A DNA stretch of 64,000 nucleotides from Styela clava (taxonomy: Eukaryota): contig NC_135257.1 of the NCBI RefSeq assembly GCF_964204865.1, forward strand, positions 22,072,001 through 22,136,000, given 5' to 3'. The translations under genes and the position numbers were made by a program. Within the stretch, counting starts at the first letter, position 1; each line of letters begins with the position of its first letter. The notes under the pieces are model-generated. The model ran no database searches. It was not told where the DNA came from and saw nothing but the letters and a program-made list of their open reading frames with translations. This document shows positions 29,001 to 57,433 of the stretch, piece by piece.

Positions 29001-29388
29001 GGTTAGCATAGATATGACTTAATAATATATAGTGAGCATAAAAGACAGTAAAAAAACTTAATCAATATGCTTCGCCGCCAACACCAACTCTGATAACCCA
29101 CGTGATATTCAATCGTTCACGCTTACCTAAAATATTTCTAGTTACGACAGGAAGCAAGTTGCCAGTATTTTTTGATTCCGTGTCATTCATAGATTTGCAC
29201 GTAATCGGAAACTCCTTATCATGCAGATGTTTATCAATGTTGAAACCTGGTCTGTCCCATCCTACTGCAACCAAATCACATTGTGCAATCTGGCAACCCG
29301 GCTTTGGAGAGCAATGGAACACTGTATCATCTTGACACCAGGATGAAGCGATGACGTATATTAACATGAAGACGATTGAAATTTTCAT
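26040..29388 (-). CDS. Secreted coiled-coil C-type-lectin-domain protein, copy 2 (7 exons, 356 aa)
   Basis: Exons 29388-29127, 28793-28731, 28467-28321, 27762-27679, 27218-27099, 26849-26641, 26225-26040. Exon sizes match copy 1 and there are few substitutions (CTLD: NCEL/NCDL, DVC/DIC, FDPM/FNPM, LRYQ/LIYQ). Confidence 0.88.
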
Positions 29389-30769: not shown

Positions 30770-33475
30770 GGAGATAGTAACAGTAATCACCAGTGCAGCA
30801 GAATCCAGATTCCACATCAACATCACTACTGATGACCTCAAATCTTTGCCTAAAACAAGAAATATAGAATCTATGGAAAACTCTGTAGAAATGACAGAAT
30901 CAGTACAAGCGATAGATACACAAATGCCAATAAAACATTCATGGGCTTTTCAATACTGCAATGGAATTGCTGCAGCATTAGACACAAGGACTTAGACTTG
31001 GTCTATCTTATATACCACAAGGCAGAAACACCAGACATTATATGCTTACAAGAAACATGGCTGAATGACACATTCGAAATACCTGGATACAAAATATATA
31101 GAAAGGATAAAACAAGAATAAGAGAAGATGGTTGTCTCATAGCAATGAAAAATGCTCATTCTTCCAAAGAATCTATTATAAATATCAGCAATATGGAAAT
31201 ACAAGCAGTGGAAATAAATGGGATCAATATAGTGAACGTATATACCTCTGGAACAAACATAACAAAGAAAAACCTAAACCAAGTGCTCAATTGCTTTGGG
31301 AGGAGAACTGTAATATGTGGTGATTTGAATGCCCAAAACACTATCTGATATTGCTCACAAACAAACTCTAGAGGTCTGGAAGTACAATCATGCATTAAGC
31401 AAAATAATCTTGTTTTGCTAAACGATGACTCCACAACTATAGAAGCCAGAGGACACCAGGGATCAATCATTGATCTTTGTATAACCATAAATGATATTGC
31501 CCATGCATGTACTATAGAAACACTACAAGAAAATCTGAACAGTGACCACAACTTGCTGTGGATAACAGTGAACAAAATTTCAAATTTAGATCCTGCTTCA
31601 GAATCCCAAAATGTATCAACGAAAAATACAGATTGGGTAAAATATAAATTTGAATGTTTTGAGAACATAAACGGTGCAACAAAAAACGAAAATATAGATG
31701 AATTTAATACTAACCTGTCGCTTGGAATAATACAAAGTGTCATAGCCTCTAGTCCCATCCCAGTAAAAAGACACATAAGAAATCCCATACCATGGTGGAA
31801 TTCGAATTGAAGTAAGGCTGTAAAACAAAAAAACAAGCATATAGAAGGGCCAAGAGAACATGTTTACCACAGGATCTCATTAATTATAAAAAGATGGAGG
31901 CTTCGACCAAAAAAATTATATTGCAAAATAAGAGACAATACTGGGCAAACAAACAACTTCTTTGGTACTCTAAAAACAAATCCTAAAGAGGTCTGGAATG
32001 CTATAGTATAAATAGTATGAGAGGAAATACAAAAACCCAAAACCACAAATATTAATCAATGATCGGACAATAACGGATGACATAGAAAAAGCAAACATCT
32101 TTGCACAATCATTTGCAGATATTGTATGCAAAGACAATACAGGAGAGACTATTACTATGAACAAAATAATTCGGGAAAACTACTACCAAAATGTTAAACA
32201 AAGTATTTTGCAACAAGAGGCTTAGCCACAAAGATCATACAACAGACGTATAACAATATTCGAATTGAACCTGGCGCTTAAAGAAACAAGAAATACAACA
32301 CCAGGTCTGGACTAAATAACATATCATGTGATAAAACATCTCCCTGTCCAAGTAAAGGAATTTTATTGCATCTCTACAATACAATTTGGGAAACAGGTCA
32401 AATGCTTGAATCATGGAAGCATTCAATAATGATACCGATTTTGAAAACGGGTAAACCAAAAGATGACCCAATGTCTTACCGACCCATATCGCTGACATCA
32501 TGTTTATGCAAAATATTGGAAAAGATTATTGTAAAACGACTAAGGACCTATCTGGAATTTAACGGGAAACTAAACTCAGTGAAAAGCGCATTTAGGAAAC
32601 AAAGGTCAGCTTTGGATACTCTAATATGCCTACAAGATGACGTACTCAAAGCATTACAAACCAGACAAGTAACATTAGCCATATTCTTAGACTTTCACAA
32701 AGCTCATGACACAGTTTGTCCCAGTGGATTGCTGGGCAAAGTAGCAGATTTGGGGGTGGAAGGACATATGCCCAAATTTAATAAAAATTTTCTACGAAAT
32801 AGATCATCAAATGAAATATCTCTCACCGTACCATACGTGGATTTCCTCAAGGTTCAAGCTTATCTCCTGTTCTATTCAATATAATGATAAATGACCTTCC
32901 GTCAATTGTAAATAATGCAAATTCAGGCCAATTTACAGACGATTTTGCTATATATAAAACCCGAAGAGATGTGAAATCCATAAAAAGAACAATGCAAATA
33001 AATTTGGACAAAATAAAGGAGTGGTGCAAAATATGAGGAATGGCTCTATCTGTCACAAAATGCGAAGCAATGTTATCCAGCTGAAGAAGATATAATCCTA
33101 ACATCAACCTCAAAATATCAGAAAAATTTATACCAATAGTTAACAAGACAAAATATCTCGGTGTCATTTTGGATAAAAAACTAAATTGGAAAGACCATGT
33201 GGAATATATGATAACAAAACTTAAACAACGATTAATTATTCTTAGATATATCAGTGGAAACAAATGGGGATCAGACTGCATACAATGGTTCTTCTTTATA
33301 TATCACTAATTCGCTCTGTATTTGATTATGCATGTCAGCTATATTGTTCTGCATCTAGGACACTATTGACAAAACTAGATACAATTCGGAATGATGCATT
33401 GCCAATTTGTCTTGGTGCTATGAAAAGTACACCGATTGATGTAGTACTACATGCCTGCTCAGAAATGCCCACTGT
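30770..33475 (+). mobile_element. I/Jockey-group LINE remnant, unit-2 copy (APE + RT)
   Basis: Colinear with 15375-16653 and continues into RT: YRPISLTSCLCKILEK, FLDFHKAHD, PQGS, degenerate QFTDD, KYLGV. ORF1 was removed by a deletion at ~30760. Confidence 0.85.
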
Positions 33476-35630
33476 AAAAAATGATAAAATTTGATAATAT
33501 ATACACCTCATAAAATTTATACAGTAGCATTTCATCCATTACGCACGTCATTAATACAGTATCGGACCACATTTTATGCCCGCAAAATAATATTAAACAA
33601 ACGAAAAAAGTGCGCTGGGGAAAGGGTACCTGGCGGAACAACATTATGCTTTATGGTGACCAGACTTACATCAAGCTAATTCAAAACACTTATAATTCCG
33701 CTCTTCCTAACTTATATGACTATGATTCGATACTGGACTGGTGGGACTATATAAAAACTAAAATTAAGAAATACACCATTGCATTTTCCCAATCCTATCC
33801 CGGGACAAAAAGAATAACATATGTCAACTATGAGAAAGTTTAACAAAACTTATAAACGAGGGCACCAAGGGAAATGCAATGAAAATACAAAACTACAAAT
33901 CGAAACTCAATACCCTGCTAGAGGAGCGACAGAAATTGGACATCCTGATGGCAAACCTGGAAGACCTGGAGGACGGTGAGAAGCCGACAAGAACCGTCTA
34001 CGAAAGGATCCAACGAAGGGCCAAGCAAACCACAATAGAGCGCCTGAAAGACCAAAATGGTTGCATGACCACAAATGAGAACGAGGTCATGGCAACAATT
34101 GAGGTCTTCTATGGAAGTTTGATGGGAGGCGGGTGCGAGACCGACGCGCAACATCAAAAACACTATCTCTCGCTCATGAGTACTAGCTCGATATCGGACA
34201 TAGATACCACCATCTTAGAGCAATACGTGACCGCCGACGAGATATATAACGCGATAAAATCTATGCGCAATAATAAGTCGCCCGGCCTGGATGGTCTATC
34301 TAAAGAATTTTATATAACGTTCTGGGGAACTATAAAAAAACAATTCACCCAATTGATCAACAACATCATAATTTTCGGCCAACTTCCCAAAACATCAAAA
34401 CTAGCAAAAGTAAAACTACTGTATAAAAAAGACGAAGAATCGGAACTTAAGAACTGGCGCCCTATCACAATACTCAACTCGGACTATAAAATATTATAGA
34501 AAATTTTAGTGAAACGATTGGAACCCGTCCTGGCATATATAATTAGTCCATCACAGAAATGTGCGCTACCGCGAAGGACAATGTTTGACGTTCACTATAA
34601 TACGGAGGCTATAATTCGATACTGTAAAACTAAAAATATACCTGGATCATTAGTTCTAATAGACAACTTGAAAGCATTTGACAACGTAAATCACAAATTC
34701 TTACTGGACATCTTAAAACAAATTGGACATGGAAATCGGATTCTGAATTTAATAAAAAACATATACTCCGCCAATAGGAGTCGCGTGGACGTAAATGGCA
34801 GGCTTACCGAGGAGATTACTGTCCGGGGCGGCATCAAACAAGGATGTCCATTAAGCATGCTTTTATATACCGTATGTGTCGAACCCTTAGCCAGATCCGT
34901 CATCATGAACAAAAATATACGTGGTCTTAAACTAGGTACGCACGAGCATAAATTAGATCAATATGCGGATGACGTCACCTTTGCTGTATGTGTTCAACCG
35001 TCCATCACGGAGCTATTTCACGAACTTGAAAAATTTCAATTCGCATCTGGCCAAAAAATCAACGAGGAAAAGACCCAAATTTTCTGCATCACCAAACGCT
35101 CTTACAATTGGATCTACAATTCTACATTCAGGCAACATATTAGAGATGACGTGAAAATTCCTGGACTTAACTTCGGGCAAAAACGGTTGGACAAAATCTG
35201 GGAAAAAATTCAAACAAAATTAATTCACAGTTGAGCTGTGCTCAGTTGAGCTGTGCTATTCATGGCATTCACGGAAGCCCTGGGCCAATGTCATGCTATT
35301 TGGCACGCTCAGGGCCGAAGTTTAGGCCACGTAATGCAGAGCAGATACGGAAGCCGGGGTGGCGGAAGTCGTGCTGTGTCCTACATGGTATAGACAGAAG
35401 CACCGGGAAAAAGTTGTGATGTGATATACAGCATGTACCGAACCCCCGGGGTGGAAGTCTGTGCCGTGCTATGGCGCAGCTAACCGAAGCCACCAATTCC
35501 TATGACTGCTGCTTATGCAGTGGCATGCTTATGAAGCGCTATTCCGATAAAGCTCGGGTATGACATGTCTTTTAGACACTGATCCGAATTTGGGAAACTT
35601 CTGATCCGTAAAAATTAAAAAAAACAAAAA
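33476..35630 (+). mobile_element. L1/Tx1-type LINE E1: 5'-truncated ORF2 (APE end + RT) joined to a structured tail and poly(A)
   Basis: SDH, WGKGTW, KSPGLDG, NWRPITILNSDYKI, GIKQGCPLS, QYADD. The ORF breaks at 35231 into the tail module, which ends CTGATCCGT followed by an A-tract. Confidence 0.85.
35228..35609 (+). ncRNA. 5'-truncated box C/D-like module M1 (3' end of E1)
   Basis: Near copy of 36630-36983; intact k-turn hairpin at 35551-35590; D box 35601-35604 followed by TCCGT; 15-bp duplication CAGTTGAGCTGTGCT at the 5' junction. Confidence 0.6.
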
Positions 35631-37009
35631 CGACCAGTTCTGGCATACAGAGGCCTTATATGACTTAGGGTCAAAAATCAACATTGTAAACCGGCGGCTA
35701 TATAATAACTCGATGCCCCATCCACCAGCAATTCCATCAAACTGGAAGGACATCCTGGCCATTTTTCGATCTCTAAACCTATCACCGGAGCAATGGGAGG
35801 ATGCAAGGCACAAGGATCTATACTATAGACTTAAAAGCAGACACCACAACCAACCCCACGAAAATATCAACTGGGAGGAGGTTCATCTGCTCAGGAATCG
35901 GCCCAAATATACGAACGCTGAAAGGATAATATCTTACCGTATAGTAAAGGACGGCTATATTTTCGGCGATCGAATGCGAGGCATGAGCCTTAGGCACGGC
36001 CCATTCGGGATCATAAAAATTATGAACTGTAAATTTTGTAGAGATCCGTGTGACAATACTAAGCACATATTTCTGCATTACAAGATCATAGCGGCATATG
36101 TTGCAAGTTTAATAGAATTCCTAAATGAAATTTTATGCGGGACCACCACAATCTCTAGAGAACAAATATTCCTTAATAGTTTCAATGGGCCAAACGAGAT
36201 TGCGGTTACGAAATGTTTCGTGCTACTCAAACAGGCAATTATACATAGGGAAATCTCTCTAGATATAGAAAATCGGTACATCGCTCCCACAGACGGAAAT
36301 ATTACAGATGCGGCCATAACCAAATTTTCGGAATTTCTTCTCGTAATGGAAAAAAGGTTCACAGATATACAATTTCTCGGCATACAAAATAACTGGAAGG
36401 AAATACTTAACCGATATCTTCTGCCATGAAACCGAAGCGACAAAAACATCGTCCATTTTTAGCCTATTTTATATCAACATACCCATGACCCCCATAACAG
36501 GGAGCATATTCACAGATAAGACCATTATTAACCCCCAACGGAAATGATGAATCGAAAGCTTCACGGTAGATGTCATGCTGTGTGCGTGTTACACGTTTTC
36601 ACACAGTGTGTACGGAAGCCGCGTCGGCGGAAGTTCAGCTGTTCTATGCATGGCATTGACGGAAGCCTTGGGCAAATGTCATGCTATTTGGCACATAGTA
36701 TGTACATTAGCTCAGGGCCGAAGTTTGTGCCACGTAATGCAGAGCAGATACGGATCCGGGGTGGCGGAAGTCGTACTGTGTCCCACATGATATAGACAGA
36801 AGCCCCGGGAAAAAGTTGTGGTGTGATATACAGCATTTACCGAACCCCCGGGGTGAAGTCTGTGCCGTGCTATGGCGCACCTAAGACCGAAGCCACCAAA
36901 TCCTATGACTGCTGCTTATGCAGTGGCATGCTTATGCAGTGTCTTTTAGACACTAATCCGAATTTGGGAAATTTCTGATCCGTAATAAAAAAAAAAAAAA
37001 AAAAAAAAA
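35631..37009 (+). mobile_element. L1/Tx1-type LINE E2: ORF2 C-terminus (zf-RVT-like CKFC...HIF) + 3'UTR + poly(A)
   Basis: ORF 35713-36429 is homologous to the E4 C-terminus; A-tract at 36984-37009. Confidence 0.85.
36538..36983 (+). ncRNA. Box C/D-like structured RNA module M2 (3' end of E2)
   Basis: ACGGA-a-ATGATGA (C box 36544-36550) ... TT-CTGA (D box 36975-36978)-TCCGT, forming a perfect 5-bp terminal stem; internal hairpins with NGAA/NGAA loops. Confidence 0.65.
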
Positions 37010-37870
37010 CGACATTATTGCTGACATTATTCGCTATTTGATTAAGGCCCTCGATAACGAAGAAAACGAAAGACAAAGACGATGAGCTACGCCGCCGCCG
37101 CATTCTCGACTCCTCCCACAGAAGAAGTTTCCGCTGCTGCATCATCTCGACCTCGGACGCTCTTCCTGAAGACCGACGAAAACATGGATTTCCACAAGAT
37201 GATGGACGTCCTCCGGAACAACACCACAACAAGGAGGTTCTGCGACCAGGTGAAAGGGCTGTTCGAAGGCCGCAGAGGGATCTGGATCCTCACCTTTGCG
37301 CCAACGGACAGCCCGAATTCTAGCTGCAGAGAGAGTTTTCTTTCTTCTACAGGTGGCCTGATACAAACGGCTGAGAGTAACATCCATGTGACACTACCAA
37401 GTAAAGCTCCTGTCCGGATCTCCATACGGGGAATTCCGGCGGAAACTCCATACAACATGGCGGTCACCAAGATCAACAAGCTGGGCTGTGGAACGGAACG
37501 GAATGCAGTCCAAAATTGGTATCGAGGGACCGACGTCTACAACGGGCACACGTCATTCCTAATGGACGGTTTTAAAAAAGACCGTTTGCCGGAATACGTG
37601 GTTATCAATGGTGAAAGCTGCAAGACCTTCCTCGCACGAGAGTTATACACTCCGACGTGTGGGAAGTGCCTAACCACCGGCCATGTATACAGTGAATGCA
37701 AGAACGAAGCCGTCTGTAAGTATTGTAAAACACCGGGTCACTTACTAAGAGAATGTCAACAACGAAAGCGTGATCCAGTCTTCACCAACCCTGTGACAGG
37801 ATGGAACATGCCTCCGCAGAAAAGAAAACCCCTGCGAAAACATACGCAACAACCACATCAGAAGGTCGTT

Positions 37871-37997
37871 CAATCTGCTGAAACAACAGAGCAGAGCCAG
37901 AGTGACGTGCAAGCTGCCGAAACAACAGAGCAGAGCCAAAATGACGTGCAACCTGCTGGATCAACAGAGCAGAGCCAAAATGATGCACAACCTGCTG
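37871..37997 (+). repeat. 39-bp coding tandem repeat in ORF1 (QSAETTEQSQSDV x ~3.3)
   Basis: ACAGAGCAGAGCCA recurs every 39 nt. Confidence 0.85.
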
Positions 37998-38588
37998 TAT
38001 CATCTTACGAGGTACGTGAATTTTCTTCTGACTTCGAAATAAATTGCCTAAAAGAAATAAAAAAAAATGATCGGAATGTGAAGATGTCGACAACGTCGTG
38101 AGTCCAATCAAAACTCCATCACCACAACGGCTATCTAGACCAAGGCAAGTCTACAGATTGAAGGAGTCATCGACAATTGGCAACACGCCATTCCATCCCC
38201 TTTCAAAGGGAAATCCTTACATCAAAGTAAGGATCAATAACTTTGAGTCCTGCGACACCACGTCTTCGTCGGTCTTCAATACAACACCGAAAGCAACACC
38301 ATCTGCGCCAGTCAGCCAAACCGCCGTCAATTGTGAATCTGACAGGGGACAGCAACAAAAGGAGCAGAGACACAACAACATCCACAGATTCCTCGACATC
38401 TCAGACAACCACCCAAAGAACTCGCGGTAAAAAGAAAAAATAACTACAAATTTCGCCCTCATTCAACCAAATTTCTCTGCTCTTACCTTATTTAGATCTT
38501 TTGAACAATTCAAATCACAATTCGGCTTATATAACGCCTGGTTGACGGCGTAAAACCCCAACCAATCAGAAATACCATCCCACATAAA

Positions 38589-38739
38589 GCGGATGTGATG
38601 AATGGAAGACTACCTATTTATGTGGCTTATAAAATGGTGATCTCTATGGCAAAGAGAATTGATCCATAAAACTTCCGTCGACATAGTCTGGGTATGAATG
38701 CATTTGGGCTGGATTCCAGACTTTGTCGTTCTGATCCGT
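38589..38739 (+). ncRNA. Box C/D-like RNA module M3 (151 nt, 3' end of E3)
   Basis: GCGGA-t-GTGATGA (38595-38601) ... TT-CTGA (38731-38734)-TCCGT; inner helices ATGGAAG/CTTCCGT and CGACA-AGTCTGG/CCAGACT-TGTCG. Confidence 0.65.
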
Positions 38740-38750
38740 AAAAAAAAAAA

Positions 38751-41700
38751 AGGGGGGGCCTGTCTTGGCGCGCTTACCTGGACAGCAGACAGCTGGTGTC
38801 GTTTTGGGCGTCAAAACCCCGCTGCAGTCCGTCTAGTTTGGGGGAGACCCTCCCGCCGCATTGAAACACAAAGAGAAATAACTTCGGACCCAGCAGATTT
38901 GGCATCAAAATAAAACTCGGATCTATCGGATATAGCATTGGAAAACTTGGAATGCACAAACAAAAGAAATAGGCAGGACACCTTCTCATCCGAAGCCTCC
39001 ACGTCAACCCAGAAAGAAAAGAAAGAAACAAAACACCTGGTAAAAAAAAGAACATACGTGAGTAACCTCTTTTCGAACAGTAAAACTTTAGACTCGTGAT
39101 GAAATTATTAGAAAACTGGTAATACCAAAACGCTTACCACAACTCCTAGTATAAATCCCCTAATAACTGCAGTTTTCCATGATGGCTGGCTTAAAGATAA
39201 TTTCCCTAAATGTCAATGAATTGCACAACACCAACTAAATAGGGTTGGTAACTTTTTAAGACATGGAAACCCTGATGTACTGTGTATCCAGGAAGCTCAT
39301 AGAGCTGATAAGACCTTTGTATGGCGGTGGGCACATGACCGGAATGTCATATCCATTGTAATACCCTGAATAGGGAGGACAAGCACTCCTCACAGTTTAG
39401 GCAAGGGACCGCAATCCTCATAAAGCACGAAATCGCAACACCACCATCCCCATTTACAATACACATCCAGCATAGATGTGATAGTATTGAGGTGGAGCTG
39501 GACAATCGCATAATTAAGATCTTCAACGTGTACGCCCCAGCAAATAATGGACCCCAAATGACGGACTTTTTCAAACACCTAACTAACATTTTAACCAATT
39601 ACTGTGATTCGGCTGAAATAATAATTGTCGAATATTTCAATATAGTATTGGAAATTATTGATGTAATAAACGATAAAAACTTCAAATTGCAACCCCCTGG
39701 GAAACTTTTTAAGAACTTTATTCAGCGCCATAATATATTAGACACCTTTAGAAAAAAGTATCCGTTTAAACAAATTTTTACGTATCATCGTAACAAGCAA
39801 GGCCGTAGGATTGACCAGATATACCACTCATATAATTTAGAAGACGTAATTTCCGAATTAACTCACGTCCCGAATACTATCTCGGATAATATACTTTGCC
39901 CCCAAATATCCTTAGAGAAAATTAAAAAAGTTCGATGGGGCCGAGGAACATGGAAAAGCAACACCTCCCTATACAGAGATAAAAATTACATAAAAATAAT
40001 AGAAAACACTTACCAGGAGGCAATAATGGATATGGAAAAATTTAGTTACATACAAGAATGATGGGACATGGTGAAAAGCAGGATCAAAAAACAAACTATA
40101 GAATATTCGAAAACCCTAAAAAGAAACAAAATGAACAATTCGATTTGATTACGGAAACATCTGGACAAATTAATAAATGAGGGAAAGAAAGAAAATTTGG
40201 TAGAAATTAAAAGATTAAAATCTCAACTTATGATATATCAAGAAGAACAGAACGAACGGGATATTATAACGGCTAACATGGAGAACCTTGAACAAGGTGA
40301 AAACCCGACTAAAACATTTCACGACGAAATTCGACAAAGAGCAAAACAAACCACCATCGAAAAACTCAGGGACGATAACGATTGCATGGTAACCGAGGAA
40401 GGGGAAATTATGACTTTGGTGGAAAATTTTTATGCCGATTTATGGGGGGAGGAAAATTTGATACGAGAAAAAACCAAAATTACTACCTATCTTTGATGGA
40501 CTCTATAATTGTTACGGAGGAAGAAAATCTCATTCTAGAACAAAATATCACACAGGGTGAAATACATAGGGCAATAAAATACATGAAAAATAATAAATCT
40601 CCGGGAATGGTTGGATTAGGTAAAAAATTTTATTTGACTTTTTGGAACTGCATAAAAAAGGAATTTACTCAAATGATCAACCACATATTTAATTTCGGCA
40701 ACTTCCCAAATCTGCAATCACAGCAAAGGTTAAGTTATTATATAAGAAGGGTGACAAAACGTATCTCAAAAATTGGAGGCCCATCACTACATTGAACGTA
40801 GATTACAAAATTGTATCTGAAATTCTCATTGAAAGATTGGAACCAAGGTTAAACAAAAAACATCTCAGGGGCAATAGTACTTATCGACAATCTAAAGGCA
40901 TTTGATAGGGTCAATCACAACTTCTTGTTCAAATTACTTCAGCGGATAGGACTCGGACAAAGATTTTTAAATGTAAAAAGAGACATGTATGGCGGCATAA
41001 AAAGCGTCATAGACGTGAATGAAAGGCTGTCAAACGAAGTAGGCATAGAGCAAGGCATAAGACAAGGATGCCCCTTGAGCATGTTGCTCTATGCACTGAA
41101 TTCGGAACCGTTGGCAAGATCGGTACATCGAAACGGCAACATGAGAGGGATAAGACTAGGTAAATATGAATATAAAATTGATCAGTATGCCGACGATATC
41201 ACTATAAACAATCAGGGACCAGTAATCAATACCGGAAATATTTCGAGAACTAAATAATTTTAAATTGGCAGCTGGGCAGAAAATTAATATTGATAAAACT
41301 GAAAAATACTTTGTATTACAAAAACCGCGCATGATTCCATAAATAATTCGACATACCAAAATTACATAAAAAACAACACCCGGATACTTGGCATAAATTT
41401 TGGAGATAAGGGACAAGAAAAAATTTGGCAAGATATCGAATACAGGCTACAAGGAATTTTAATCACGTAAAATTGCGGAGCCTTACCTAGTTTGGAAAAT
41501 TAATCGTAATCAATGCGTTAGTCATGTCTATTATAATTTTCCATGCCCGAATCAAGTGTATCCCTAGTAGAATAATAACTAGAATCCATAGCGCATGTTA
41601 TAAATTTTTATGGCATCCACAACGAATAGAAGCGGTGGGTAGAAAGACCCTACGGAATAGTTGGGAAAACGGGGGGACAAACATGTTTGATCTCCAGGCA

Positions 41701-43006
41701 AAGATTGAAGCATGCCTAGTTGAAAGGATTCGGGACCTCATAAGCAGAACAACGCCAACTCAGTTTTGGCACTTTGAGGCCCTATACGCCCTGGGTTCGA
41801 AAATAAATGCGGTAAACAAACATCTATATACCAACTCGATGCCGCACAGCAGCGATGTCCCAAAAATGTGGTACAATACTCGAGGTATTTAAAGAGGTCA
41901 ATTATACGCAAGCGGAATGGGAGACGGCTCGCCACAGGGACGCCTGTACGCGAGACTGAAGAAGAAACACCCAGACCAACAACAATCGGACCTAAACTGG
42001 AAAGAAATTCATTTGCTTACGAACACATATAGGACCAAATTTTCAAATATCGAAAGAGTATTTTCATACCGGATTTCAATTAACGGGTACATCTTTGGAG
42101 ACAAAATGCGGACAATGGGACTTAAGGATATTAAGTTGGAAATTTTGCAAGATTAATACAGACAACACTAAACACATCTTCCTCTCCTGCGTTAAAATAG
42201 CCAAATATATCTCGGACATCACTGAAGCCTTAAACCAAATTTGTCGTAAAAATATCATAATAACCCCGAAAGAAATAGTGTATAATGGATATCAAGGGCC
42301 CCATCAACTTATGGTAACAAAATCTTTTGTGCTACTGAAAAAAAAACGTAATACAAGAAAAAATAAAGATGGAGATAAAAGACAAATACATGGACCCCGA
42401 AGAGGACACAATTTTGGCCACTACAATAAGAAACATTACAGAATTTATCACAATTATGGGATATAAATTTGGCGATGTACATTTTTTGGAACTGGTAGAC
42501 AACTGGAAACACATTTTAAACGGTTATGCAACAAAATATTAACTTCATTGTTCGAAACTAGGTAATAGCAATATCATCTCCAACTACCATAAGTGGTAGC
42601 CCGAATCAATAACCAAAACGGCCAGAAAAACACAATTTTTTTACCTCGAGGATACCATCCGATACAGCAGAAGTGATGAATCGGGAGCTTCTCGGTGAAT
42701 GTCGTGCTGCGTTATACGCGGTATGTACGGAAGCTGGGGTGGCCGAAGCTGTGCCCTGCCGTGCATGGCATGGACGGAAGCCCCACGTTGAAAAATATGC
42801 ATTGCATACGTAGAAGCCTGTGGTGGAAGTCTGTGCTTTGCAGATGCGCGGCAGATACTGAGGCCCCCGGAAGTGTATGACTACTGCATGCAGTAGAATG
42901 CTTATGAAGCGATTGACCAATAAAACTCGGATATGACGTGTCTTCAAGACACTGATCCGAGTCTGGAAAACTTCTGATCCGCCAACAAAAAATAAAAAAT
43001 AAAAAA
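38751..43006 (+). mobile_element. L1/Tx1-type LINE E4: ORF1 C-terminal fragment, frameshifted near-full ORF2 (39184-42543), 3'UTR, A-tail
   Basis: MAGLKIISLNVN, NVYAP, RIDQIY, WGRGTW, KSPG, NWRPITLLNVDYKI, GIRQGCPLS, QYADD, CKFC-like finger. Clearly diverged from E1/E2. Confidence 0.88.
42667..42982 (+). ncRNA. Box C/D-like RNA module M4 (3' end of E4)
   Basis: GCAGA-a-GTGATGA (42673-42679) ... TT-CTGA (42974-42977)-TCCGC; canonical-looking k-turn hairpin at 42925-42962. Confidence 0.65.
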
Positions 43007-43009
43007 CTG

Positions 43010-43151
43010 ACATAGCAGTCCCCCAGGTAAATTTATGAATGTTGCGTATGCAACAATATGCTTATGAAGCGTAATACCGCAATGCCTCGGACATGACGTA
43101 TCGTTGTGCTACTGATCCGAGACAGAACGTACTCTGATCCGAAAAAAAAAA
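43010..43151 (+). mobile_element. L1/Tx1 tail-only fragment E5
   Basis: Shares ATGCTTATGAAGCG, the k-turn hairpin and the CTGATCCG-poly(A) end with E1 and E4. Confidence 0.7.
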
Positions 43152-43189
43152 TCATGGGCTACTTACTCTCCATACAAGGTGCGAGTCGT

Positions 43190-44298
43190 CGGTTGTAACG
43201 TTTGGAATCCATACTTTGTTTTATTGGACACGTTTAGTGGACATAACGATCGTTTCAATATTATGTTGTTGGACACGTAGTGGACATAACGATCGTTTCA
43301 ATATTATGTTGTTCTTGTTGTTATTTGACACAGAATAACACACCTAGTGGAAATATTAAAAAACCGCTTTTCTCTTCGAATACTGGACCAATTGCTTTGA
43401 AATTTTCAGTGGTTGAAGATAAAATTTTTCCCCAGAAGGCTATTACTTTTATTCAGTTTAAATATTTCTGTTAGCTCTGTGAGATTTGTTTTTGTTTGCT
43501 ATGACGTCATTAAACGTTCTGCGGACATCGGACGCCATTTTGTGTCCTACTGTACTGCTGCGCTTGGTGTGAATATATTTTTAGACTGTGATCTGACGGT
43601 ACGGTACACCGTACTGTACTGCGAACAGACGTGTCCATATATTTGGGCTTAGCTCTCTTGTTGGACACGTAGTGGACATAACGATCGTTTCAATATTATG
43701 TTGGTCTTGTTGTTGTTGTTCTTTGACACTTTTTGAACATCTAGTGCAAAATCTAAAAAACCGCTTTTCTCTTTCATTGCTGGACCGATTGCTTCGAAAT
43801 TTTTACTGGTTAAAGATGAAATTTTTCTCCAGAAGGCTATTACTTTTATTTATTTCAAATATTTCTGTTAGCTCTGTGAGATTTGTTTTTAGTTTGCTAT
43901 GACGTCACCGAACGTTCTGCGGACGCATAGCCGACACTCCTCTTCTTTTTGATCACGTGCCATCGAACGTCGATGGTTCGTAACGAAGTCCTTACGGTAC
44001 TTTGCTACGATTTTTTCCTTACGCTGATCGACGGTACGGTAAACCGTACTGTACTGCGAACAGACGTGTCCATATATTTGGGCGTATCTCTCTTGTTATT
44101 GTTATTATTTGTCTCTATCATTTTTAAAAAATCGCTTTTCTCTTCCAATACTGGACCAATTACTTTGAAATGTTCAGTGGTTAAAGATAAAATTTTTCTC
44201 CAGAAGGCTATTACTTTTTTTTCCGCTATGACGTCATCAAAAATATTGCCATTGGGTGGCGCTACTTGTTCATATATTTGAGAATAGCTCTCTTGTTT
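43190..44298. repeat. ~390-440-bp tandem repeat (about 2.5 units), possibly internal repeats of a non-autonomous Helentron/HINE-like element
   Basis: GGACACGTAGTGGACATAACGATCG at ~43271 and ~43663 (variant at ~43226); ACTGTACTGCGAACAGACGTGTCCATATATTTGGGC at ~43612 and ~44048; units end CTCTCTTGTT. The tandem structure is directly visible; the TE class is inferred. Confidence 0.6.
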
Positions 44299-45281: not shown

Positions 45282-48200
45282 TTAGATCTGGATCTCACAT
45301 ATAACTCCATGAAATCGCCGGAGGGGAACTCTAACATGCCCCCAGGTAGGATAAGTATTCTCCATCCCTTGCAATCTCGAGTTAGAATCAACATAGAGAT
45401 AAACATTTGTGTAATCTTTATAATCAATTCCAATGAGTGGAAAGCCTTGCCATTTAATGAATGAATCTGCAGGTGTGACGTCACGGGTCTGAAAACAAAG
45501 AATAAAAATGTTTACATGAAGATTATTATTGGATTATGCTTGATCAACTCTCATTAGTTTGTCATTTATGTGCTTTCAAGCTTCATGTTCGTGGGGTTTC
45601 GCAATTATTGTAAAAACTAAAGTCTGATTGGGATATTCGTTACCACTTTGTAGACGCACTTCAACTGCATTTAGAAGTTCGTCAAATGTATTTAGCATTT
45701 ACCTACTTTATTTGGCTCACATAATTTCATTACAACCTCGAGAAGAGAAAGACCTTTACTCAAACTGTATTGATGCGCACAAAGACTGCGACTGGTAATA
45801 ATGTCAATGGGTGTCCTACACTTCACCCGTTTGTTTACAGATCCCTATATTTATACGAGTATGAATAGACAGCCATAAGACACTAACCATTGGATCAAAA
45901 TGAATTCCTGTCCATATACTAATATGTGATAGTCTTTTTGGAATCTTCTTCTTCAAGTATTTCATAATCGCATTGTAAGATTCTTCATTTCGGATCGAAC
46001 CAACATCCGCGTTACGTTTCTTACAAATATCAACTGCTTTGTTGTAGTCGACGTTCAATTTAATTTGTATCAAAGCAGAATAACAGATATTTCCGATCTT
46101 CAACTCGCAGTTTTCTAAAACGCAAGAAATTTTATTTGCAGTTTTACAAAAGCAAATATTTTGCCGGCACCGATGAACGTGCAGTTTTTGCCACTATAAA
46201 TACTTTCCATATCTAATTTACACATTGTGAATTTCACCAGACTTCACAATAGGTGTCTGCTCAGACCTCTTCTTAGAGCACAGATCGCTACGTTTTGGAA
46301 AAAGTAAATTAATTTTGCCAACTATAGACAAACTCTTACGACAGTTATGAAGTTGGTGTTACTGTGGTATTCTGAACAGGGATGTGCAGGTAAGAAAATT
46401 CACAATCGACTGCAGGGTCAAAAAATATTTGACTTTGAGCATAGAATTTCTGATCCCGAATTTGGGGAACGCTGATAGTTTAAAATTTTTCATCGAGCCC
46501 TGGCTCCAGTGGAATCGAGGTCGACTTTAAATTTCTGAATGAGATCTTCACTGCGCCACTGACTATGAAGGTTTACCTGGAGACGGGGTCTGTTTCAATG
46601 TTGTTTTAGTTGTTGTCGTTGGTCTCTGTTGGTTTCTAGATCGAACCTGTTGAGGCTTCTCCATTGCAGAGATTTTTTGTTCAATCCGCTCCATTGCTGA
46701 AGAGAAGAATATACGTAACTTAGAACAGCGTCTATGTCAAGCATTACCGAAAACAAAATGTTGTCAGTGGCACAATGGCCAATTTGGTTGCAGGAACTTG
46801 TAGCCAACTTTAGCACAAGTTTTAGGGTCCATCTGTACTAACATTAGGGACATCCGGTGCGCCATTATGTTGTAAAACTTTGAATTATTAATTTGGAATT
46901 CTTAGCATGATTTTATTTTATCAGCTAAGGTACATTTGCTGAGCTATATCTGCGTGATTTACCTTTTTTCATCTCATTGTTTGTTTGCTTCTGTTCGTCC
47001 AATTTTTCCGAAAGCTGGTTGTTCATCGTTTCAAGTCTGACCAAATCTAATAAAAAAAGGTCACATAAAGCGTTGGATGTCTGTGAATGCAAATCCTACT
47101 TACCTGATAATCACATTTTCTAATTCAACTCGGATTCATTCGTTATACAGATTTGGAATCCTGTGTAGCTTGGTACTGTTCCTAGTGTTGGTCTCGACTG
47201 CGGATTTTTCGAGTTTGTATGTCAAACCCATAGAACACGTTTACAACAGTGAAAAAGAATTACAATTACACGGGATCAAATGTCATATTAAAAAACATTG
47301 CACAAACCTTTTTTCAAATCCACGATTTCGGCAGATTGCTCTGTATTTTCATTCTGTATCTCGCGAATTTCTGCGTGGTATATATAGGTAAAAATAAATA
47401 ATCTTGTCAGTAAAAACTAAGCATTAAAACAAGATTTCAAGTAGATTTTTCAAATCCAACCTCTTACCCTAATGTTCCTATGCCAACTTTGGTGAGGAGC
47501 ATACTCCATTGAAGAAAGTCCGATAACGACTATTTGTGTCATTAATACTAACTTGAAATTTCTTTCGCAAAGCTCCGAATGCTTTTCATTTTCACTTCTA
47601 CGTTTTCTTCCAACTCTTTGAATTCTGATTTGACGTTGCTAATATCTGAGTGAAATGAAGTAAAATAAATTTAACATATTGACAAATTTTCAATTGCTCG
47701 AATGAATACCAGATTAATTCAGAATTTTGGCGATGGGCATTTACGCTTCATGGTAGTTTATGATAAGTTTGGCATGTTTTGATATAATTTTAGTGGTTGT
47801 GACATCCGTATTTTTTTCGCTCAAGTAGTCAATGGTAACATGGGATTACATAATCATCCCGAAATTTCCAAGGGAGAGGAAAGCCGATGAAACAGATTAA
47901 AAACATTCCGAACCACGACCTTTCGTCTAGTACCAAGTCCATGTAGAGTATGAAATAAGTTACCTAGTTGTTTGTTTTTGGATGCATGGACTTGATAGTG
48001 GAGGAAGTCGTAACCGACTAGCGGTTACGTGAAACACCCTACGAGGAAGAAGAGTCCTACAATCCTCTCGCACATAGCTATCTCCCCATTGAATTAGAAC
48101 CGACGAATGGTAATACGAGGTGCGGTGGCGAGCGTATTCCTATCCAAACGCTATTTATTCCTTAGCCATCGTCTTTTTTCATAAAAATAAAGTTACACAA

Positions 48201-48651
48201 TAAGAATTTTTTCAGTAATAGAAAACGTTTTATTTAACCAAAATAGTCAGATCTTTCGTCAGCGTGTCCTTTTTTTGATTGGATTTACTGAGCATGGCAT
48301 TCTATGTAGTTATTAACAGTCATGGTTGGCGGCCTAGGATATTTGCAAGGACACTTAACAAGGCTTTATCATGAGTGAGAACTACTTGCCTGAAGTATTT
48401 CTAGATATAATTGGAAGCAAGTCTTTATTATTTCCGGACTTTGTCGTTTTCTTTGATTTGCATGTAATGGGGAATTCCTTGTCATGTAGATGTTCATTAA
48501 TGTTGAAGCCTGGTCTGTCCCAACCTACAGCAACAGGATCACATTGTGCGATCTGGCAACCAGGCTTGGGAGAGCAGTGAAACACTGTTTCATCCTGACA
48601 CCAGGATTTATTGATGACGTAGATTAAGATGAAAATGACTGATGTTTTCAT
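45282..48651 (-). CDS. Secreted coiled-coil C-type-lectin-domain protein, copy 3 (diverged paralog, 7 exons, 351 aa)
   Basis: Exons 48651-48390 (GC donor CAG|GCAAGT), 47645-47553, 47370-47308, 47046-46963, 46696-46577, 46114-45888, 45488-45282; total 1056 nt, open frame. AATAAA overlaps the stop and recurs at ~45157-45162. Confidence 0.85.
47870..48172 (-). mobile_element. tRNA-SINE copy in intron 1 of lectin copy 3
   Basis: Colinear with 49195-49259 + 50413-50660 and with the 22.6-kb and 52.1-kb copies. Confidence 0.65.
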
Positions 48652-49259
48652 ATCGAGGTTTTAAGGTATTTACGTTATAACTGAATGATTCAAATTGTTT
48701 GTGTTTATTTCAACTTATAACTCTGGAATATGACAGGAAATGCAGCAAGTTTTGTTCAAACTATGAGCTTGCTGCTGTTTTAAATGACGATACTCGTTAA
48801 CTCTTTAGTTGTTCTAAAACTTAAAAAACATTTTTAGGAAATTTTGCTCAAATAAAGCTCACGAGATTACTTTCGAAAGCAAAGTTTACAAATCTCTAAG
48901 CAAAATTGCGTGCGACCGTTGAAGTGCCAGGGGTCACTGAGATGATAAAATAGTTGAGCAAACAATTACGATGAAATCTGTGTTTGAAGGCTAAATGTTT
49001 CAAAATGTATGTATTGCTACTATTTCAAGTAAACTTTCGTTCTGTTAATATCCAATGATACGAATTCATTTCTAATTGGCTTTATCGCAATTTGATGTTA
49101 CATTTACCTGTCGATAACGTGGTTCAAGGTATATGTGTTGATTGGATTGTTTTGCCTAGTTGGATTGGATTTACATTGTTACCCATGGGAGAGATTGAAG
49201 CAGATGAAACGACTTAAGAATATGGCGAACCACGGCCTCTCGTCCGGGTACCAGTCCAG

Positions 49260-50412
49260 GGGCGCCATTCGCCAAACTTCTTTATCGTTTAACGTGTTAG
49301 TAAAGCACCAATTTTCCCGTAAAAGGCAAAAATGGTATTCTCGAAGTGTCGTTAACATTCGAGAGAATTTTTTGCGCGCCAAAACAGGCGTCTCGTAAAA
49401 TGCCTTCTTCTCTCATTTTCCCGATAATCGTATTCACCATAGTTCTTCAACGCGTCGGAGTGCTCGCAAACTAACGAGAGGAACATTTTACTCGTTAACA
49501 GTAGTCTGGCCTGTTTTTAGCATTGAAAAGGTAGAATGTATGTGTGTTTATTTGTAACAGTATCTACATAATAATAAACGGTATAACTAAGACGGGATAC
49601 ACGTTCAATACCCTACTGACCCAAGACAAGTATGTGCGACATGCACCCCAACAAATGCTGTTGTGTTTGCACACAAAAATTGGTATCAAAAATTTCTAAA
49701 TGCCTAACTTAGGTAAGAGTGACTGTAATCTAGTAGCTGTGGACCCACCTATATATGCCAACTAACAGCGTGCCTTCATCAAATATGGGATTACATATTC
49801 ATCTATATTGTTGTCTGTTACAGAAGTAGTTTAACAATATGTATCTCAAAATTTATTTCATTCATTCATAGATTACTGCTGTATTCCCCAAACTTTAAAT
49901 CACAGGCTGCAAAAAGTAAAACAGAGATCATTTGCAAAATAGGATTATCCGCGCCGGGCGGCTAGCGGCAGTGAGTGATACGGTTGAGTGATCATACAGT
50001 GGTTTTTGGGTGCTCCCGAAGTATGCGAACCAAGATGGCGGACATCGGAACGTAACAGGTTAGGGTTAGGCGATAATTTTTTTCCAATTTTCCTTATTTT
50101 AGTCCTATTATCAGTTCGAAGACGAGCCAAGAGCCTCTCGTAGTATTTATACCTAAAATTATGGCCTAACCCTAACCTAGTACACATATTACATTCCGAT
50201 GTCCGCCATCTCGGTTCGCATACTTCGGAGCCCCGGTTGTTGTTCAACGACGACCGTGCGTTGGATTTCGAGAGAACTTGCGTGACCGTGCGTAAAGTTT
50301 TTACAAGATGTTTCGTGAATCGCACTTAACGAGATTTCGTAACTGCGTTTTTGAGAGACAAGGTTACGTGCTCGTAAACGCGGCTTTTTACGAAGTTTGG
50401 CGAATGGGGCCC
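49260..50412. mobile_element. PIF/Harbinger-type non-autonomous element
   Basis: TIRs GGGCGCCATTCGCCAAACTTC / GAAGTTTGGCGAATGGGGCCC; 3-bp TSD CAG. Confidence 0.82.
50008..50234. mobile_element. Fold-back MITE nested in the Harbinger element
   Basis: Long inverted arms GCTCCCGAAGTATGCGAACCAAGATGGCGGACATCGGAA / TTCCGATGTCCGCCATCTCGGTTCGCATACTTCGGAGC with inner GGTTAGGGTTAGG / CCTAACCCTAACC. Confidence 0.8.
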
Positions 50413-52139
50413 CAGGTCGGGTATGGGATTAATTAGACAGGTATTTATTTTCGGAAACATGGACTTGATTGTAGAGAAAGCCGTAACAGACCATCAGTTA
50501 CGTGAACCACCCTACGGGGCAGGCAATGATTCCAGACATTATCTTGTCCATAACCATCCCTGCATGGGATTCGAACCTGGAAACACGCACAGGGTAATCA
50601 GAAATCCGGTGGCGAGCGTATTCGAATCACCGAGCCTTTGTCATGCAGATCCTTAGGTAATTATTTATTCTTCCCAGGGTAGTGCCCGTGTCCGTGAATC
50701 GCAATTTTGGAAATTAACATTTGAGTTTCGTGAAGTTCGCGTATGTTCATAAAACATTTACAAACAAGGCCCTAACCATTTCTAGACGAGGCCATGTTAG
50801 CAATGATAAATTAAAACAGCCGCCTATCTTTAAAGTACACTGCGCGACGTCGACCGTTTGACTTCATCGCCTGAGGGAAACGCAACATAAGACTAGAAAT
50901 AGCACTCTTACTAATTCTTACCTGACGCTATTTTTAAAGTTTGAGTCTGAATTTTTAACTAAGTTAGACTATTCTTCTCGTCTCACATTCTTGTTATAAC
51001 ATTTATAATATTTATATATCCACATAGTTTAATCTTTTACGCTTCGAAAGTGGTCGAATGACAACGATTCTACTTTCAAAAATGTCTCTACAAAGTTCAA
51101 ACTTTTTCTTTCGAAGTTTGAAAAGTCGGCAAACTCTTCTATCAGCTACTTGTCTCTATGCAATCGATATCAAACTATACTGATGTGTTTTTGTCGACTC
51201 GCTTTTATGCTTAAAAATTTACGCGTTCGGATATAATACGCGCACTTATGTCGTGACGCAGTTTTGGATTAGCGATGTCGCGTGATCATCATGAGATAAA
51301 CAATGACAACGCAGAGTTAGTTTTAGTCATTTGCAATATTCTATTTTTAAAGAAATCGCGATGAATTTAAAATATAAACTTACCTAATCTATTAAAATCC
51401 AGCGCAAAGTTATACAAAATTATCTGTAAGTTAAGAGAGAATGTAAAAGGTATTTAGACAAGCAGGCATATACTACTATAGCAGACATTAAAAATACCCA
51501 AACTTTTAGGTAATATATCATTTATTATTTCTGTAGTTAATTTGGTGAACAAGGAGTTTCGAACATCTGTGTGAATGGCAACTTAGAGGTAGTTAGTTGC
51601 TGAAAGGAGAGAAATGTAGTTGTCAGAAACTCCGAGGTAGTAACAAGTAAAAACCTATTTCTACAGATAATTGGTGAAGATTACAAAGTTTTTGTTTCAG
51701 CATTTAATACAGATGATTACCGAGGAATCCATTTTAAAAAATTTTTTACCCCTCGTTTTTCTTAGAGTTCGACCCAAAATTATCTTTATACTGGAGTCGC
51801 ACTCAAAATTTTAGTCTCATTGGAGCCTTCTTTTTATTTGCTAGGAGGGTGGCAAATTTTTTTTGACTACAGGTAGTTTATGCAAATTTACTACGATAGG
51901 ATAGTTTTTTCAGTGATCATTTCCCTAAAGTTTAAGCACGAAATGCTATTATTCTGCATTTTCTGAAAAACACTTGCAAAATCAAGCTAACGAGATATTT
52001 CTTTCAAAAACAAAGGTAACTGATCTCTAAGCAGAATTGCGGCGACCGTTGAAGTGCCATGGGCCACTGAGATAATATAATAGTGGAACGAACAATTACG
52101 GATGAAATCTGAGAGCTAAAATTTTGATTATTCATTTAG

Positions 52140-52340: not shown

Positions 52341-53488
52341 CCTGTCATGCAGATCCTTTGTCATGCAGATCCTTAGTTTTTTTTTCAGTCTTCCCAAGCA
52401 TGTCAGTGCCCGTGTCCATGAATCGCAATTTTGGAAATTGAAATTGGAGTTTCGTGAAATTTGCGTATGTTTTAAAAAACATTTACAAACAAGGCCTTAA
52501 GCCATGTGCGTCATCAATTGACCATAGGGTCCGCACTAATTTCACGTGTAAATCATTAAATTTACTTATTAGAATTTATCTCCATATAGGACATAGAACA
52601 GGGGTGGCCAACCTATGGCGCATGCACCAAACGTGGCGCATTGTATGATTAGAGGTGGCGCATTGCATCTTTAACCCTTTTCATGCCAAAATTGTTAATT
52701 GCACTTGGCTTCTCCACGCCAAGCCGTTTTTTTTGCGATTTCATGGTGACTTTTGATTGTACCTAAAATCTATTCTCCTTACTCCACGTCGCCCACTTAC
52801 GGCTTGTTGGAATTAGAAACAACAGGCGATTATCGACGTTTGGACGGACGGTATGACATTCATTCTAGACTTTTAGCAAAAATTAGTAAAATTTACTATT
52901 TTTCCCATACTGAAGTGAAAAGTTCAGAACTTCTGGAAAAATAGAAAATCGTCATTTATCAGCTTGAAACATGGATTTTCCATTGCCCAGACTTCCCAAA
53001 TATCTCCCAATAACCATTGAACAACCAGTTGAATTGCCCAAGCCTAAAAAAATTATAATAAATCAACCCACAACATGCTGAAAATGACCCCTAAATACCA
53101 CCTTTTTCATCCAAACTTCAAATGACCGTTGTCAACAAATTTGATTAAGGTTTAAAATCTACCAATAAATAGCAATAGTCTAACCTAACAAACATTGCTG
53201 CCAGCTCAACATCTTGGTTAAATCAGCAACATGTCGAACACCAAAACGAACAATACTTTCAACAACACCGTAACACCAAAGCCGAAACCACGGATGAGCA
53301 GAAGCCTTCCAGATCCTGGCCTCTCTCCTATCGGTCCCATTCACCATTAGATTGAGGGATCTGCTAATTTTCAACTGAACCTGCAAGAAGTAATTCAGAG
53401 ACAAATCGAGATCCAGCTTCCAGCTTTAATTGCCAAGTGTCTCGAAGATAAATTTAACCCGGCAAACCTTACTTCGGATTACATACCA

Positions 53489-54196
53489 TTGAGCCCTGGG
53501 CTTAAAGAGTGTATGGAAGAGCAAACGCTGTCCATAAACGAGTTGAAACATGACATCACATCAATCAAGGAATCTCAGAGTTTTCATTCAGATATGTATG
53601 ATGATCTCTCTGCAAAACAAAAATCAATGGATGTTAAATTAACAACATGCAGTAAAAGAATACGCGAACTTGAAGAATTAGTATATGATCTCGAAGAAGA
53701 TCTTTATTTTGTCACCGAAAAACTCGAGGAACAAGAAAGGCGATCCAGACTCGACAACCTTGAGTTTCACGGTCTTCCTCCTACAGTGAATGAAGACACA
53801 GACAAAATAATAATGGAGATTGGCAAATCCATCCATGTCGATATCAAACCCTCAGACATCTCTGTCACTCACCGTAGTCCAACTCACAATACTAATATTC
53901 ACAAACCTATTATAGTCAAGTTTACTAACAGAAAAATACGGAGCAAAATTCTGAAAAATCGGCACCTTATCAGAACTGCTGCCAATAGACCATTAACAAA
54001 AAACTTATCAAAAGCTTTTATTGTGGAAAACCTAACTGAAAAAAACAAAAATCTTTTCTATCAAGCTAAAATCCTCAAAAAGCAATGCGGATACGCTTTT
54101 CTTTGGACTTCTAATGGAAGAGTGCTAGTGAAAAAAAACAAGGACACCAGTCCCCTATCAATATCTGACGAAGAAGACTTAAAAAAAATCAGATAA
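53489..54196 (+). CDS. LINE ORF1 (coiled coil + RRM-like/C-terminal domain); probably starts upstream at ~53231 across a frameshift
   Basis: ERRSRLDNLEFHGLP, PIIVKF, ENLT, FLWTSNGRVLVKK. Confidence 0.8.
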   Translation: MSPGLKECMEEQTLSINELKHDITSIKESQSFHSDMYDDLSAKQKSMDVKLTTCSKRIRELEELVYDLEEDLYFVTEKLEEQERRSRLDNLEFHGLPPTVNEDTDKIIMEIGKSIHVDIKPSDISVTHRSPTHNTNIHKPIIVKFTNRKIRSKILKNRHLIRTAANRPLTKNLSKAFIVENLTEKNKNLFYQAKILKKQCGYAFLWTSNGRVLVKKNKDTSPLSISDEEDLKKIR

Positions 54197-54406
54197 GTGC
54201 CTTCATTGTCTCAACCATTTGTCTATTTATGGCTAATTCAAGCCATTTTTCACTTGTCTCAGACCTCACTCAAAGTCTAATATCCATTACTGCTTGTCAT
54301 TTTATATGTGGAGTAACTGCTTGTGGCCCTTCTACATTGAAGTTTTATTTACTGACCCATAATCGATTGCTTATATGCACTTTTATTATCCCAAGTCCAA
54401 TTATCA

Positions 54407-57400: not shown

Positions 57401-57433
57401 CCTTACCAGTCTGCTGTGATTGCATCCAAATGA
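54407..57433 (+). pseudogene. LINE ORF2 (APE endonuclease + reverse transcriptase) with a single in-frame stop at 56870-56872
   Basis: HLNIRSL, SET, GDFN, IDHI, TDH, KPWIT, NYRPIS, DLKKAFDTVDH, PQGSVLGP, FADD, YLG; the same frame continues after TAA to 57433. Confidence 0.9.

Follow-up and report, generated by a model that had tools for sequence, protein, structure and literature searches.

The window analyzed here is a 64-kb stretch of Styela clava DNA (contig NC_135257.1, positions 22,072,001 to 22,136,000). Its plus strand carries the remains of two LINEs, an ORF1-only element, and five copies, M1 to M5, of a structured domain that we refer to as the module. These features are as follows, in window coordinates.

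33834..36429, plus strand: broken ORF2 of the upstream LINE, interrupted by M1; RVT_1 match at 34500-35231
35244..35630, plus strand: M1, a 5'-truncated module inserted in the upstream LINE's ORF2; decayed k-turn 35553-35587, box D 35601-35604
36539..37010, plus strand: M2, an expanded module of the long type, 3'-terminal in the upstream LINE; box C 36544-36550, k-turn deleted, box D 36975-36978, poly(A)
37085..38101, plus strand: ORF1 of the ORF1-only element that ends in M3; zinc knuckles, weak Pfam match
38590..38750, plus strand: M3, a short module terminating the HAL1-like, ORF1-only element; box C 38595-38601, k-turn 38685-38722, box D 38731-38734, poly(A)
39160..42542, plus strand: decayed ORF2 of the M4-bearing LINE, with endonuclease, reverse transcriptase, and a C-terminal cysteine domain
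42543..42666, plus strand: spacer from the ORF2 stop to the terminal stem of the M4 LINE; conserved ATACCATC motif at 42652
42667..42982, plus strand: module M4; terminal stem (one mismatch here), box C 42673-42679, box D 42974-42977, 3' stem strand
42925..42962, plus strand: internal k-turn hairpin of M4; 7-bp C stem, UAU bulge, tandem G.A/A.G, C.U, 5-6-bp NC stem, U-rich loop
42983..43008, plus strand: mixed A-rich tail of the M4-bearing LINE
43009..43152, plus strand: M5, a 5'-incomplete short-type module of an L127-like family; k-turn 43086-43121, box D 43134-43137, poly(A)

The middle of M4 is structured, with GGAA/YGAA internal loops followed by the internal kink-turn (k-turn), and both M2 and M4 lie ~110-125 nt 3' of an ORF2 stop and end in poly(A). 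A first-pass annotation of this DNA had reported the internal k-turn hairpin in four modules. The hairpins of M4 and M5 agreed letter for letter with that description, and they were the only two sites recovered when the window was scanned strictly on both strands (C stem of at least 5, NC stem of at least 3, R-U at L2-L3). A similar k-turn parse arose by chance in 0.57% of 2115 dinucleotide shuffles. The other two examples, although present, have decayed. In M1 the hairpin spans 35553-35587, a few bases off the 35551-35590 given before, and the stem pairing described as preserved, which holds for M4 and M5, is not fully so here because G>A at 35565 turns the first NC-stem pair after C.U into an A.C mismatch. 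The looser M3 version was located at 38685-38722; it is of the A.G type with one extra U in the C stem, and this copy carries an A-G>T change that its sister copies lack. M2 had been thought to have lost the hairpin by deletion, and we found a 29-nt deletion that removes the 5' strand of the internal k-turn, together with a GA>AA change in the 3' strand.

Folding z-scores were -3.77 for M4 (1/200 shuffles as good), -2.08 for M5, -1.91 for M1, and 0.03 for a fragment of M3. The k-turn register is absent from the minimum-energy fold of M5, as expected given that the folding model has no sheared G.A pairs. Rfam covariance models gave no match at gathering threshold across the whole window, and three weak matches within 35000-43400, none of them on a k-turn. 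M3 also contains a second GA-containing hairpin (38630-38680) in D-like then C-like order; its 3' strand is altered in many sister copies, and it is not conserved.

Elsewhere, the window holds a recent tandem duplication of ~16-17 kb (about 700-16500 and 16800-31800, 97-100% identity) with C-type-lectin-like exon fragments inside, and older related copies near 46500-51400 and 62800. Positions 53351-57433 (plus strand) are a nearly intact LINE of another clade with a 281-aa ORF1 and an 838+186-aa ORF2, and 59263-61394 (minus strand) hold a hAT-like transposase in pieces; the lectin, LINE, and transposase labels were assigned by eye.

Modules as the 3' ends of LINEs

Modules make up the final 130-470 nt of L1/Tx1-type LINEs and of ORF1-only elements, downstream of the ORF2 (or ORF1) stop and upstream of the poly(A). 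A full module reads, in order, a ATACCATC-like motif, a 4-5-bp stem, a 3-nt bulge, box C, a structured middle, the internal k-turn hairpin, a variable linker of 8-16 nt, box D, the 3' strand of the stem, and the tail. The kink thus sits 8-16 nt upstream of the terminal box D, which agrees with the annotation's placement of it shortly before that box. Box C/D snoRNAs likewise have RUGAUGA and CUGA joined by a 4-5-bp terminal stem, with U.U, G-C, and A-U in stem II (PMC7038934; this and most other sources cited here were available in part), and the modules share box C, box D, and the terminal stem, with a terminal kink that mostly retains the C/D-type U.U and the same stem II. Box C departs from the consensus in three families (GACGA, GAAGA, and GATGT). 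A hammerhead reading of box C was rejected by eye, as the core C is missing (consensus from general knowledge).

Modules differ mainly in their middle. Short modules (the L115, L116, L118, and M3 types) measure 131-147 nt with a middle of ~60 nt, long-type modules measure 314-340 nt with a middle of ~250 nt, and the M2 middle is longer still; across families, the middle contains from none to about eight hairpin units. One long module had a folding z of -7.14. In the consensus of 16 long modules, a hairpin is followed by a long rod interrupted by repeated GGAA/YGAA internal loops, then by a short hairpin and finally by the k-turn hairpin. The rod (42690-42880 in the window, and in all long modules) repeats purine-rich 4x4 internal loops, GGAA opposite YGAA, in numbers that vary by family. 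These loops could be an array of protein-binding or sheared G.A motifs.

Across the 377-Mb genome, we found 168 candidates for the M4 3' part and 120 for the M3 type. The box C pattern matched 97 times against 0 for its control, and the box D plus poly(A) pattern gave 365 rows (those on the minus strand redundant) against 4. An ORF2 C-terminus lay directly upstream of the module in 25/30, 28/30, and 71/80 copies of three sets. M3-type modules had ORF1 upstream in 26/30 copies and an ORF2 C-terminus in 0/30, and their elements are HAL1 (half-L1) in form, with ORF1 only followed by a 3' tail and poly(A); module-bearing elements thus have ORF1-only partners, as L1 has in HAL1. The remaining elements have the ORF1, the ORF2 with endonuclease and reverse transcriptase (RT), the poly(A), and the target-site duplication of L1/Tx1 non-LTR elements, and we aligned twelve intact ORF2s of about 1100-1170 aa. 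Target-specific insertion is a behavior of the Tx1 group (PMC3747384, in part), and since the insertions in specific gene targets match it, we apply the Tx1-type label. The label is inferred from architecture and target specificity, the RT tree holding no named Tx1 references; the shared features are the endonuclease-RT-cysteine-domain ORF2, the zinc-knuckle ORF1, and insertion in tRNA, U2, U4, and histone genes.

Family-specific targets include several tRNA genes, U2 (5' end), what we take to be the start codons of H2A- and H3-like histone genes, and the 3' part of a U1-like sequence (loci with such targets: L021, L036-L040, L045, L056, L243, L247, L258, L088, L030, L224, L289, L266, and L314). 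U4 genes and other elements also occur in the flanks. One family (L107, L108, L109, L116, L117; G000 C4:20.1 Mb) targets tandem U4 snRNA genes (42 U4 matches scored) at their 5' stem-loop. The pyrimidine-rich satellite with a 37-bp period seen in the window at 4150-5200 and 20170-21050 belongs to a ~2-kb repeat that has over 1000 candidates and is a target of several module-bearing elements (flanks of L062, L110, and L290). We considered this repeat, into which four elements have inserted, as the source gene of the module, given its adjacent C-like and D-like words, but with 1130 candidates it is not an evident source.

We also compared 80 metagenome L1/Tx1 loci, which are distant (21-39% identity). 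The terminal C/D motif was seen in 0/4 of those with a complete end and poly(A), and a sequence-only module model found nothing in 43 of the 80, a null result that is weak because the same model missed the divergent modules of L116 and L118.

Conservation of the internal kink and probable exchange of modules

To describe conservation we used three sets, all collected through the module itself: lineage representatives (35 in total, of which one lacks the anchor and M2 has the hairpin deleted, leaving 33 scored), ten intact lineages, and 153 element ends, of which 104 fitted one template and 30 another, the GA letters being unconstrained in both, and 19 fitted neither. The standard k-turn architecture of C stem, 3-nt bulge, tandem G.A and A.G, and NC stem was found, with one extra U in the C stem of the M3 type, and the k-turn consensus proposed for the hairpin is supported by the strict window scan, the 33 representatives, and the 134 fitted copies. 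In those copies the 1b2b GA is intact in 100/104 and 28/30 and the 2n1n GA in 102/104 and 27/30, so that free variation of the GA dinucleotides, which would speak against the hairpin, was not seen (128 and 129 intact of 134). L2 is a purine in 134/134 copies and L3 is U in 132/134. Among the 33 representatives, GA is intact in 32 on the bulged strand and in 33 on the other, and L3 U and L2 purine are each kept in 33. The pyrimidine mismatch attributed to the 3b.3n position was only partly borne out: 23 representatives have C.U and 4 have C.C, but 4 have A.G and 2 have something else.

Covariation across genomic copies had been suggested as a check, and the stems do covary while the GA pairs are conserved. 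When 16 long modules were placed in the k-turn register, 95.6% of cells were paired, and two-sided change occurred in 21/83 pairs versus 6.9 in shuffles, a control that ignores relatedness. The outer terminal pair is G-C in 8 of the 16 and A-U in 6, the domain ends pair across 130-340 nt with compensatory change, the internal C stem has two compensatory pairs, and the NC stem differs by family (GTG/CAC, GTA/TAC, GGC/GCT, GG/CC). All ten intact lineages retain both kinks, with ORF2s that are 32-65% identical and synonymous sites that are saturated (fourfold third positions at 19-40%); their seven long modules are 76-91% identical. The 5' strand of the C stem has been lost by recurrent deletion in single copies (L031, L035, L317, L328). 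GA retention, stem covariation, and the ten diverged lineages support the proposed selection on the hairpin, which we conclude is real, under selection, and part of a larger structure than was previously recognized.

We also drew a sample by ORF2 protein only (150 matches, of which 64 were read: the top 30 and 34 at new places). Forty-nine of these loci extend to the end of ORF2. Among the 49, the module is present whole or in part in 43; two more are broken in the spacer, and the other four come from a lineage whose 3' UTR is different and has no C/D motif. In new families from this sample, the NC stem is rewritten and the core kept. Given that 43/49 ORF2-sampled loci carry the module and 4/49 do not, we conclude that it is common and old, yet not obligatory. 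The related lineage without the C/D module (L330 G000 C8:4.30 Mb, L332 C5:7.00 Mb, L334 C4:23.32 Mb, L335 C6:19.57 Mb) has an intact ORF2 and no canonical poly(A) signal. In its 3' UTR we noted a tract of pyrimidines, the word CTTACCTG, an AG resembling a 3' splice site, and GTAAGTAT adjoining the poly(A). The CTTACCTG word presumably resembles the U1 5' end, and the arrangement suggests that this lineage may use a splicing-related route to its RNA 3' end.

Part of the high module identity may reflect exchange between families and not constraint. The modules of L124 and L114 are 88% identical, with ORF2s at 37%. At L265-L268, another element is nested in the terminal stem or box C of a resident module with 9-10-bp duplications; the insertion is site specific (L265:4080-4095 and 9165-9180) and has built nested arrays. 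L125 has a double module flanked by a single target-site duplication. Nested insertion and shared modules together make read-through into a downstream module a likely swap route.

These same observations could mean that nested insertion and 3' transduction have spread the module as a captured relic or a selfish passenger, that its RNA now serves no function, and that the k-turn has been inherited and not selected. Both the insertions found in the box C stems of resident modules and the double module inside one duplication favor such an origin, as does the hairpin of the L116 family, which resembles the host U4 5' stem-loop in a family that inserts in U4 genes. Host U4 has an AAU bulge and a UUUAU loop, and the L116 hairpin shares 14/15 letters with it. 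In our homology test, L116 gave p=0.005, five long-type modules gave p of about 0.04, and 16/22 were not significant. We regard this likeness as a lead on a possible origin, not established; against the passenger explanation, the match holds in only 1/22 at p=0.005 before correction. Furthermore, exchange fails to account for the compensatory changes, or for core retention in rewritten short modules with variable middles that keep both kinks, and RNA-level selection is needed to explain them. We therefore think it very improbable that the module is a mere passenger.

Kink class, RNA 3' ends, and a putative C/D RNP

The internal kink has its C-like strand 5' and its D-like strand 3' and is closed by a loop. 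We rejected a box C'/D' motif, as D' is not 5' of C' and the strands are reversed and hairpin-closed; the layout is instead that of the U4 5' stem-loop, with which the internal kink shares a 5' bulged strand, an outside C stem, and an NC stem closed by a U-rich loop. U4 differs in having a Watson-Crick or G-U 3b.3n pair and protein-dependent folding (PMC4382518, in part), while the modules have C.U, C.C, or A.G at 3b.3n, a longer NC stem, and no U4 homology elsewhere. According to the available parts of three papers (PMC4382518, PMC8191799, PMC5579392), 3b=C or 3n=G, -1 A:U, and 4b.4n G:U favor folding in Mg2+ only, and box C/D and U4 kinks require protein to fold. The internal kinks have 3b=C or 3n=G in 31/33 representatives, most of them with -1 A:U, and by these published rules the 31 are predicted to belong to the ion-folding class. 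Thus, an architectural role is as open as L7Ae binding. At the same time, a protruded U is a k-turn hallmark in the portion of PMC8162545 available, and given the invariantly purine-U bulge, the internal kink may suit the predicted L7Ae-family pocket. Stem II of the C/D motif recruits Nop58 after 15.5K (PMC4242836, in part), from which we infer that the internal kink would bind 15.5K, probably without the full core.

The element 3' ends lack a canonical poly(A) signal: AATAAA or ATTAAA occurs in 0/129 ends within 45 nt and in 0/75 within 100 nt. Templated sequence ends about 5 nt after box D, tail starts are copy-specific (12 different among 15 near-identical copies), and in 75 long tails non-A letters make up 18.9% of positions 2-8 versus 4.4% of positions 14-20. 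This pattern is consistent with trimming to an RNP boundary followed by non-canonical tailing, and there is precedent for the trimming and polyadenylation of snoRNA precursors (PMC1687206, in part). The absence of a signal is a limited argument because the module-less lineage also has no canonical poly(A) signal.

We favor the reading, at a probability of roughly 0.55, that the internal kink is a second Snu13/15.5K site in a C/D RNP that sets and protects the 3' end of the element RNA. Snu13/15.5K would bind both the terminal and the internal kinks, read-through transcripts would be trimmed back to the terminal C/D RNP, and the trimmed RNA would be tailed by a non-canonical polymerase under license of that RNP. 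The full C/D core would assemble on the terminal kink (U.U, G-C, A-U). The internal kink, a closed hairpin of U4-like form with C.U, C.C, or A.G, would fold unaided and bind 15.5K via its purine-U bulge, probably without the Nop56/58-fibrillarin core; it would also bend and stabilize the last helix beside the poly(A), where reverse transcription starts. C/D proteins have a precedent on a reverse-transcriptase template in trypanosome telomerase RNA (PMC5855555, in part). Several findings sit less easily with a C/D RNP. The related lineage (4/49 loci) has neither module nor canonical poly(A) signal, so neither the module nor the signal absence is unique to an RNP mechanism; the L124/L114 identity can reflect recent exchange, with nested insertion supplying the route; box C has drifted to GACGA, GAAGA, and GATGT, and kinks have been lost in single copies and M2; and a nucleolar or nuclear RNP sits awkwardly with translation of ORF1 and ORF2.

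The ion-folding prediction also fits recognition of the domain by the element's own ORF2 or ORF1, the kink being architectural and no host snoRNP proteins taking part, given that 31/33 internal kinks are in the class that folds in Mg2+ without protein (PMC4382518, in part). Stringent LINEs, including one plant L1 lineage, recognize structured 3' ends (PMC3747384, in part), and ORF1-only elements retain the module, as expected of a partner that needs ORF2 in trans. However, ORF2s with just 37% identity use the same module, the terminal kink has retained its exact box C/D sequence and the bulge its purine-U, both of them host-protein determinants, and a related lineage transposes without the module. 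We judge recognition by the element's own proteins unlikely, though it deserves serious consideration.

Alternatively, the module may be released as a stable box C/D RNA, useful to the host or regulating the element, with the LINEs as its host transcripts and the internal k-turn in a small RNP. The complete terminal C/D motif with its stem would be expected of such an RNA, and in some families inter-family homology begins at the terminal stem, 7-8 nt before the first G of the kink. Of seven copies starting at -10 to +3 of box C, which might have been retrocopies of processed C/D RNA, the dispersed L003 and L033 are without another explanation, but L125 is the double module and four (L265-L268) are nested insertions with target-site duplications, and we rejected the retrocopy interpretation for them. 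Reading of the loci turned up no free-standing, non-retro gene copy. Between families, the 20 nt that precede box D are variable, and in a search for a conserved antisense element of at least 10 nt against the rDNA unit, U2, and U4, these 20 nt beat all 12 shuffles in 1/22 representatives; a methylation guide was rejected for rRNA, U2, and U4 on this shuffle test. Unlike box C/D snoRNAs, the modules have no guide-order D'/C', no conserved antisense element, and no Rfam match, and they form the end of a coding retrotransposon RNA, followed by poly(A). We consider an orphan RNA distinctly improbable as the main role of the module.

The C/D RNP that we favor would place the modules among several known systems. 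The Trypanosoma brucei telomerase RNA C/D domain and the vertebrate telomerase H/ACA domain are cases in which an RT template carries a snoRNP-bound domain, as predicted here, although telomerase RNAs are non-coding, come from a single gene, and have had binding shown, while the modules are part of a protein-coding mobile RNA in hundreds of copies and their binding is predicted (PMC5855555, in part). In sno-lncRNAs and SPA lncRNAs, a snoRNP structure similarly protects the end of a long RNA, but there it is an intronic host-gene snoRNA at the 5' end or both ends, whereas the module lies at the 3' end before the poly(A) of an autonomous element (PMC7038934, PMC8162545, both in part). The snoRTs, in the available part of PMC1687206, also combine snoRNA-like sequence, an A-rich tail, and a target-site duplication; they are passive copies of host snoRNAs, while the module is a fixed part of ORF-bearing elements. 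For Tx1-group or HAL1 elements, or LINEs generally, we found no description of a C/D or k-turn 3' domain in the literature searched, which was partly available and included few subscription journals or Repbase entries. Intronic K-loop RNAs are short, and the accessible text of the preprint on them contains no retrotransposon term (10.64898/2026.08.03.742641); likewise, no snoRNA term appears in the accessible part of a paper on snRNA-headed SINEs (PMC4494074).

L1-type RNA 3' end formation and host RNP engagement are central to retrotransposition, and a snoRNP-ended LINE, if true, would connect mobile elements with the way in which telomerase RNA and sno-lncRNAs work. The platypus snoRTE SINE, with an H/ACA head, reportedly has its snoRNA at the 5' end. 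Intact young elements, with the module-less sister lineage as a control, are natural test material, and the three natural 3b.3n variants provide a test of published k-turn rules in eukaryotic RNA. A broader and more tentative proposal, which is possible but which we would sooner doubt than assert, is that clade-wide the poly(A) signal has been replaced by a swappable snoRNP cassette. Host C/D proteins would define the 3' end, the U4-like kink would position the RNA for reverse transcription, the cassette DNA would serve as an insertion target for trading, and the cassette might also be released as an abundant orphan RNA.

Contigs of four sequencing runs that we guessed to be RNA covered 9, 9, 6, and 14 of 30 bins over 41700-43200, with level, start, and strand not readable from contigs. 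One such contig starts at box C, a start that is not informative for the RNA end. Another, from a run guessed to be RNA under a second organism label, spans 42758-42982 with 11 differences.
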